The position numbers were made by a program, and so were the translations under genes. Below, piece by piece: positions 42,655-42,890 of a DNA stretch of 64,000 nucleotides (positions within the stretch are counted from its first letter, which is position 1; every line of letters starts with the position of its first letter). The notes under the pieces were generated by a model. The model had not been told where the DNA came from, searched no databases, and worked only from the letters and a program-made list of their open reading frames with translations. Source of the stretch: Eledone cirrhosa (lineage: Eukaryota); contig OZ024763.1 in NCBI GenBank assembly GCA_964016885.1, positions 19,344,001 through 19,408,000 of the forward strand. The letters run 5' to 3'.

Positions 42655-42890
42655 TTTATTAAAATAACAGATTAAAGTTTAAGCAAAGAATCGCTGCTTT
42701 CACCCTTAACGGGATCTTCTGAAACGGGAGTTTCAGAAGATCCCGTTAAGGGTGAAAGCAGCGATTCTTTACTTAAACTTTAATCTGTTATTTTAATAAA
42801 TATTTGCTCTACGGTTCTTATATATTTGATATATATTTATCCTTATCGAGCCCTCTTTGGATTTTAGTCTTCAAATTTATTATTATTACT
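42655..42890. mobile_element. PLE-like terminal fragment, family D, inverted pair with CAGAAGA hammerhead folds on both strands
   Basis: Arms 42655-42725 and 42730-42802 around cggga. Plus: ggagttt-CAGAAGA-tcccgttaagggt-GAAA-gca...-TT-aaacttt. Tail to ...ttattattattact. Confidence 0.75.

Follow-up and report, generated by a model that had tools for sequence, protein, structure and literature searches.

Position 4 of the hammerhead core is normally a fixed U. In this work, we focused on a hammerhead-like motif of Eledone cirrhosa, here called family D, which reads CAGAAGA and thus carries A at this position (A4). The window studied, i.e. the whole stretch of 64,000 nucleotides analysed (assembly GCA_964016885.1, contig OZ024763.1, positions 19,344,001 to 19,408,000), contains a palindrome at 42652-42803 with one such motif in each arm. 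Was A4 the state of the master element, and does a motif built in this way still cut? A sequence-only reading of the window had attributed the A to the master element and left the choice between an unusual active variant and an element propagating with a dead ribozyme.

Family D copies in the window

The 24-nt motif running from the core to GAAA was matched exactly at 7474 (+), 16222 (-), 42721 (-), 42734 (+) and 54035 (+), while 100 shuffles of the sequence gave 0 matches, which bears out the five CAGAAGA copies previously claimed. The sequence also agrees with the earlier description of stems II and III and of the UU site. The 7-bp stem I proposed for the 42734 copy stands in part: the 5-bp proximal stem is present, and the two outer G's are bases of the inversion junction. 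Features of the family D loci are as follows.

42652..42725 (-): left arm, a 5'-truncated pLTR copy; minus-strand core start at 42721, stem I of 4 bp
42726..42729 (no strand): inversion-junction loop of 4 nt, from the hairpin prediction
42729..42733 (+): 5' strand of proximal stem I and start of the right-arm copy, from the sequence
42734..42740 (+): core C3-A4-G5-A6-A7-G8-A9, with the variant A4 at 42735
42741..42753 (+): U10.1/U11.1 mismatch, 3-bp stem II and 5-nt loop 2, the last loop base being A, from sequence and fold
42754..42774 (+): GAAA, stem III with a 9-nt loop (pair broken at 42771) and CUU, from the sequence
between 42774 and 42775 (+): predicted cut, placed by hammerhead numbering
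42775..42788 (+): proximal stem I and distal helix, 3' strands; the window copies lack the 5' strand of the latter
42789..42889 (+): remaining pLTR and tail, to (TA)n, from the sequence
7457..7540 (+): second copy, core at 7474, stem I of 3 bp, preceded by an inverted tail end
16158..16224 (-): third copy, core at 16222, stem I of 2 bp
53927..54101 (+): fourth locus, core at 54035, an inverted tail (~53927-54028) joined to a forward copy

At 42652-42803, the duplication is inverted around a 4-nt loop, and its two arms are predicted to pair as a 74-bp hairpin (-115 kcal/mol). As this single hairpin would outcompete both hammerheads, the latter fold is unlikely in either arm. In the 42734 copy, a G-to-A change at 42771 disrupts one stem III pair, and the 5' strand of the distal helix has been lost from all five window copies. 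These copies are short pLTR remnants of an autonomous Penelope-like element and probably have no activity of their own; truncation and fold-back at insertion would generate them as by-products.

Other hammerheads occur in the window. Canonical CUGAUGA copies of a sister family, with the same architecture, lie at 118 (-), 7376 (-), 7383 (+) and 12910 (-), and a piece of a second sister family with a U3-A8 swap (also found at L243 and L254-L259) lies at ~53850-53880. Further hammerhead families are located at 13352, 13860, 23072, 23173, 36805, 62325 and 63025, among which 62325 (-) is a candidate for CCGAUGA (U4C) and 63025 (-) for U3-A8.

Fixation of A4 across the genome

In the whole genome (3.0 Gb), the core-stem II-GAAA pattern matched 23,083 times and the sequence 3' of the predicted cut (the tail) 41,087 times. 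When considering copies with an intact stem I, A4 was found in 15,362 of 15,499 (99.1%). The first 100 listed of the remaining 137 copies had T (37), G (39) or C (24) and, U being no commoner than the other replacements, these non-A bases look like random mutation. CUG copies were rare, i.e. five among the first 100 of the 23,083 matches, and all five were palindromes centred on position 4 (four exact, one with a mismatch) whose two strands read CUG and CAG. The genome-wide predominance of CAGAAGA upholds the view that A4 came from the master element, and the same count rules out decay as its source. A hidden U4 master was likewise ruled out, the few CUG copies being point mutants or position-4 fold-back junctions. 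Four public runs, searched as contigs, had no other letter at 2% or more at position 4, two of these runs being labelled as other organisms and yielding few contigs there. Using a looser pattern, which was limited to motifs whose stem II is flanked by U on either side, no other large A4 family was recognised among the first 100 of 2,257 matches, 30 of which were read in context.

Palindromes produced by fold-back, with core position 4 at their centre, were observed in family D (L004, L017, L020, L375, L396 and L400) and in the canonical sister family (L094 and L118). They are a possible route for interconversion between U4 and A4 in both families.

The host element

Upstream of the motif, longer family D copies extend into an ORF, which was found from its start, with a length of 709 to 713 aa, in nine of the 16 stretches around the best protein matches. 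The motif lies ~935 nt 3' of the ORF stop and, in tandems, ~186 nt 5' of the next ORF; full elements with the 713-aa ORF have the A4 motif in both pLTRs. This single ORF encodes an RT followed by a C-terminal GIY-YIG (YRDDG at 350, NIVY/YIG at 586/602). Protein marks of the Hydra clade were found, i.e. DKT at 119 (for DKG), RWR (RWK-like), a CxCx5C linker at 568 and, near the protein end, CDLC at 666 (CxxC) and CKH (CxH); GxKF/Y and CCHH are absent, a single Cys lying between NIVY and YIG. The pLTRs, tandem and inverted copies and (TA)n insertion are all present in family D. A Pfam search with a 501-aa piece of the protein returned no family. Comparison of the protein motifs with the published clade definition points to an autonomous Hydra-clade Penelope-like element, and membership of the Nematis clade was dropped after this comparison. 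The family D element is young.

Origin of A4

Two sister families with U4, whose protein is ~50-53% identical to that of family D, were found in the same genome. The canonical sister (at least 4,985 copies, linked to an ORF) reads CUGAUGA in all of the first 100 of 4,985 matches. The second sister combines U4 with the U3-A8 swap already known from hammerheads (by eye); its stem II is long, its loop III palindromic, and 788-aa ORFs exist. In File S2 of PMC8557442, CUGA is found in 26/26 Hydra-clade rows, the search behind them having required it. Because U4 is present in both sister families and in all 26 published rows, A4 is derived. The older family D subfamilies, ~11% decayed vs 3-4% for the young ones, have A4 in 82/88 copies and in 96 among the first 100 of 208, and a tail-only search of 30 old copies gave A4 in 10 of the 11 that were readable (by eye). 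These counts point to A4 as an old feature of the family D lineage.

Conservation of the fold after A4

Majority letters of full-context copies were compared between the old (20 copies) and the young (94 copies) subfamilies (224 copies were collected; truncated or unclassified ones were excluded). Columns that were the same or different numbered 52/2 in stems and core, 14/10 in loops and 61/39 in flanks, so that stems and core contrast with loops (p = 7e-5) and with flanks (p = 4e-7, or 2e-5 when a 10-nt indel is counted once). The two differing stem/core columns are artefacts, namely a gap shift and CpG decay leaving a G-U pair. None of the 12 fixed core positions changed (p ~0.015-0.018 in comparison with loops, alone or together with flanks), while N7, the sole free core position, differs between old and young subfamilies. 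Loop 2 is 5 or 6 nt long in 28/30 and ends in A in 25/30, with an altered inner sequence. Just upstream of the motif, 3 differences occur in ~25 columns.

Compensatory covariation, to which the sequence-only reading had looked for support, was sought between old and young stems and is absent, since the stems are unchanged and offer no changes to score. Moreover, most old copies were retrieved with patterns fixing core letters, and the contrast rests on one old-versus-young comparison; the evidence for selection is therefore good but not airtight. As regards the choice between an active variant and a dead ribozyme, retention of stems and core while loops and flanks changed disfavours a simply dead, decaying one. 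As the fold stayed constant while the surrounding sequence drifted, the motif likely still has a job.

Predicted fold and cleavage

The full motif of 76 nt comprises three helices arranged about the core as in type I hammerheads, stem I consisting of a 5-bp proximal part and a 9-bp distal helix. It satisfies the consensus C3 U4 G5 A6 N7 G8 A9 / G12 A13 A14 A15.1 / U16.1 H17 except at U4 and, with A at this position in nearly all intact-stem-I copies, should be considered a hammerhead-like variant and no member of the consensus. In full pLTRs, the distal helix lengthens stem I with predicted pair probabilities of 0.72-1.00. The predicted minimum-energy fold differs from the hammerhead, which lies 2.8 kcal/mol above it with a proximal stem I probability of 0.05-0.08, and A4 lifts the predicted probability of C3 pairing with G12, in competition with this fold, from 0.03 to 0.40. 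On paper, stem III could also form in a dimer, which does not discriminate between the readings discussed below. An Rfam search with the full motif (E up to 10) gave no hammerhead family; this is a weak test, since the 150 of 457 rows listed for the window lacked its canonical hammerhead families as well.

In hammerheads, a tertiary contact usually links the last A of loop 2 to stem I. On balance, we lean towards family D as a weak, probably assisted ribozyme variant that would cut slowly after CUU. In this lineage, A became fixed at position 4 of the core, after which the rest of the type I fold was retained. In full-length RNA, the distal helix would close stem I, the terminal A of loop 2 would supply the tertiary contact, and G8 and G12 would perform the chemistry. 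A4 would slow cutting through loss of the U-turn contact and by favouring a competing pairing with U11.1, and the RNA would probably be cut only with the assistance of the element's protein or of a second copy.

Published cases lend some support to such a variant. A natural U4C variant of a viroid is active enough in vivo, and a U10.1-U11.1 mismatch is tolerated (PMC3088659). Among the published Hydra-clade hammerheads, U10.1/U11.1 is found in 14/26 rows and U17 in 10/26 (PMC8557442 File S2), and one Penelope hammerhead was cleaved only after addition of the element's protein (PMC11167929). Counted against cutting are the hammerhead not being the predicted minimum fold, the competing pairing, and C before UU vs G in 26/26 Hydra rows.

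Copy ends and splicing

None of 46 family D copies starts at the predicted cut, at most two among the first 100 of the 41,087 tail matches possibly do so, and the canonical sister gave 0/10. The 5' ends of 19/46 copies fall within 0-9 nt upstream of C3 and none at 10 to 43 nt, in a count that includes both palindrome arms and the five window copies; in a second set, 30/85 ends fall within 0-11 nt. As the canonical U4 family also shows this pile-up where proximal stem I begins (7/10, by eye), the pattern does not single out A4. The pile-up may mark either where transcription starts or where the RT stops, and a promoter starting at stem I could explain it. An initiator-like sequence is present at the pile-up site in both families, and the sister also has a TATA box ~30 nt upstream of it.

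Penelope copies usually retain their introns. In family D, an intron is precisely absent in 4/132 copies (L001, L071 (+), L075 and L028, compared with L077:7430-8365), its GT donor lying 83 or 115 nt past the stop codon and its acceptor ~100 nt upstream of the core. Such precise loss implies that spliced RNA was reverse-transcribed, and the spliced copies imply that some RNA starts further upstream than stem I. The core CAG and the stem I AG were both rejected as acceptor, the donor being joined there in 0/4 spliced copies. Five short copies (L300, L337, L351, L352 and L355) all start 53 nt upstream of the core, which suggests a non-autonomous sub-lineage.

Other explanations for the A4 motif

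A second explanation, to which we give clearly less weight than to slow cutting without dismissing it, is that A4 ended useful cutting and that the whole fold, catalytic residues included, was conserved through several waves of this family, which numbers tens of thousands of copies, as a protein-binding site or as a place where the RT stops or switches template. When one type III hammerhead was mutated in all pairwise combinations, the single mutants of its CUGA turn were all weakly active (PMC9901934), which is in keeping with a non-cutting fold. In another Penelope element, of the Poseidon type, insertion in vitro proceeds without the need for hammerhead cleavage, and no RNA-seq reads end at the cleavage site (PMC11167929). 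The absence of copy starts at the cut and their clustering at the start of stem I fit this explanation as well, but the latter is shared by the canonical U4 family. The motif also lies in the 5' part of a spliced RNA, where cutting would strip the 5' end of the message. However, unpaired catalytic residues were kept and only N7 changed, which is the pattern expected of catalysis.

If the ribozyme had died when A4 arose, it could have been carried neutrally, the family having spread since because Penelope elements need none. Naiad elements, abundant without canonical hammerheads (PMC8557442), the absence of covariation and the fairly conserved upstream flank, which implies that local rates vary, are compatible with such neutral carriage. 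Changes nevertheless avoided 54 structural columns while the intervening loops changed by ~40%, and several loop 2 variants occur on one and the same stem, so that we consider this explanation improbable. It is still harder to believe that A4 was favoured as a 3' splice site (C3-A4-G5 after a pyrimidine run) and the ribozyme sacrificed: the sequence resembles a strong acceptor and a Drosophila Penelope intron ends at helix I (PMC4209133), but all four spliced copies use the acceptor upstream of the motif.

Weak, assisted cutting is the reading that we favour. If A4 cuts, the hammerhead consensus is broader than CUGANGA descriptors, and families of this kind would escape them. Should it not cut, the conservation of its fold would indicate a second function: Penelope hammerheads would be under selection as a structural cue for the element's enzyme, beyond their role as scissors, and this cue could mark where copying stops and folds back and where copy ends cluster. 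Why Penelope elements keep hammerheads is a question raised by cleavage being dispensable in vitro and by Naiads without the canonical motif. Family D and its matched U4 sisters in the same genome represent a natural experiment on this retention, with the canonical CUGAUGA family as a natural control.

Comparison with known systems

A natural U4A hammerhead or a CAGANGA core was not found in the literature searched, and work on Penelope variants, figure supplements and early mutagenesis studies might hold one. Family D shares with the Hydra-clade hammerheads of PMC8557442 a type I motif in the pLTR, U10.1/U11.1, a short stem II and a frequent U17, and with the corresponding elements (TA)n insertion, tandem and inverted copies and the DKT, RWR and CxCx5C protein marks. 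It differs by CAGA with CUU, a 9-nt loop III and a 9-bp distal helix, whereas the published rows have CUGA and G before UH; four family D motifs were absent from the supplement text of that paper.

The minimal and palindromic-helix-III hammerheads of metazoan Penelope-like elements (PMC4209133) are similar in their pLTR position, many truncated solo copies, low expected activity and the occurrence of core variants (U3-A8 there). No position-4 variant appears in the parts of that paper available to us, and stem III of family D can form in the monomer. Natural core variants described in PMC3088659 provide a precedent for weak functional variants, including the viroid U4C and the U10.1-U11.1 mismatch, but they are single loci, and U4A is not named in the portions of the text at hand, whereas family D descends from a master of more than 15,000 copies. 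The Poseidon PAc hammerhead (PMC11167929) is likewise a pLTR hammerhead of a Penelope-like element with a downstream tail and offers a model for protein-assisted cleavage; it belongs to another clade and its core was shown to cut, while cutting by family D is a prediction. Penelope pLTR hammerheads themselves being already known, family D adds a U4A variant that extends to an entire family.
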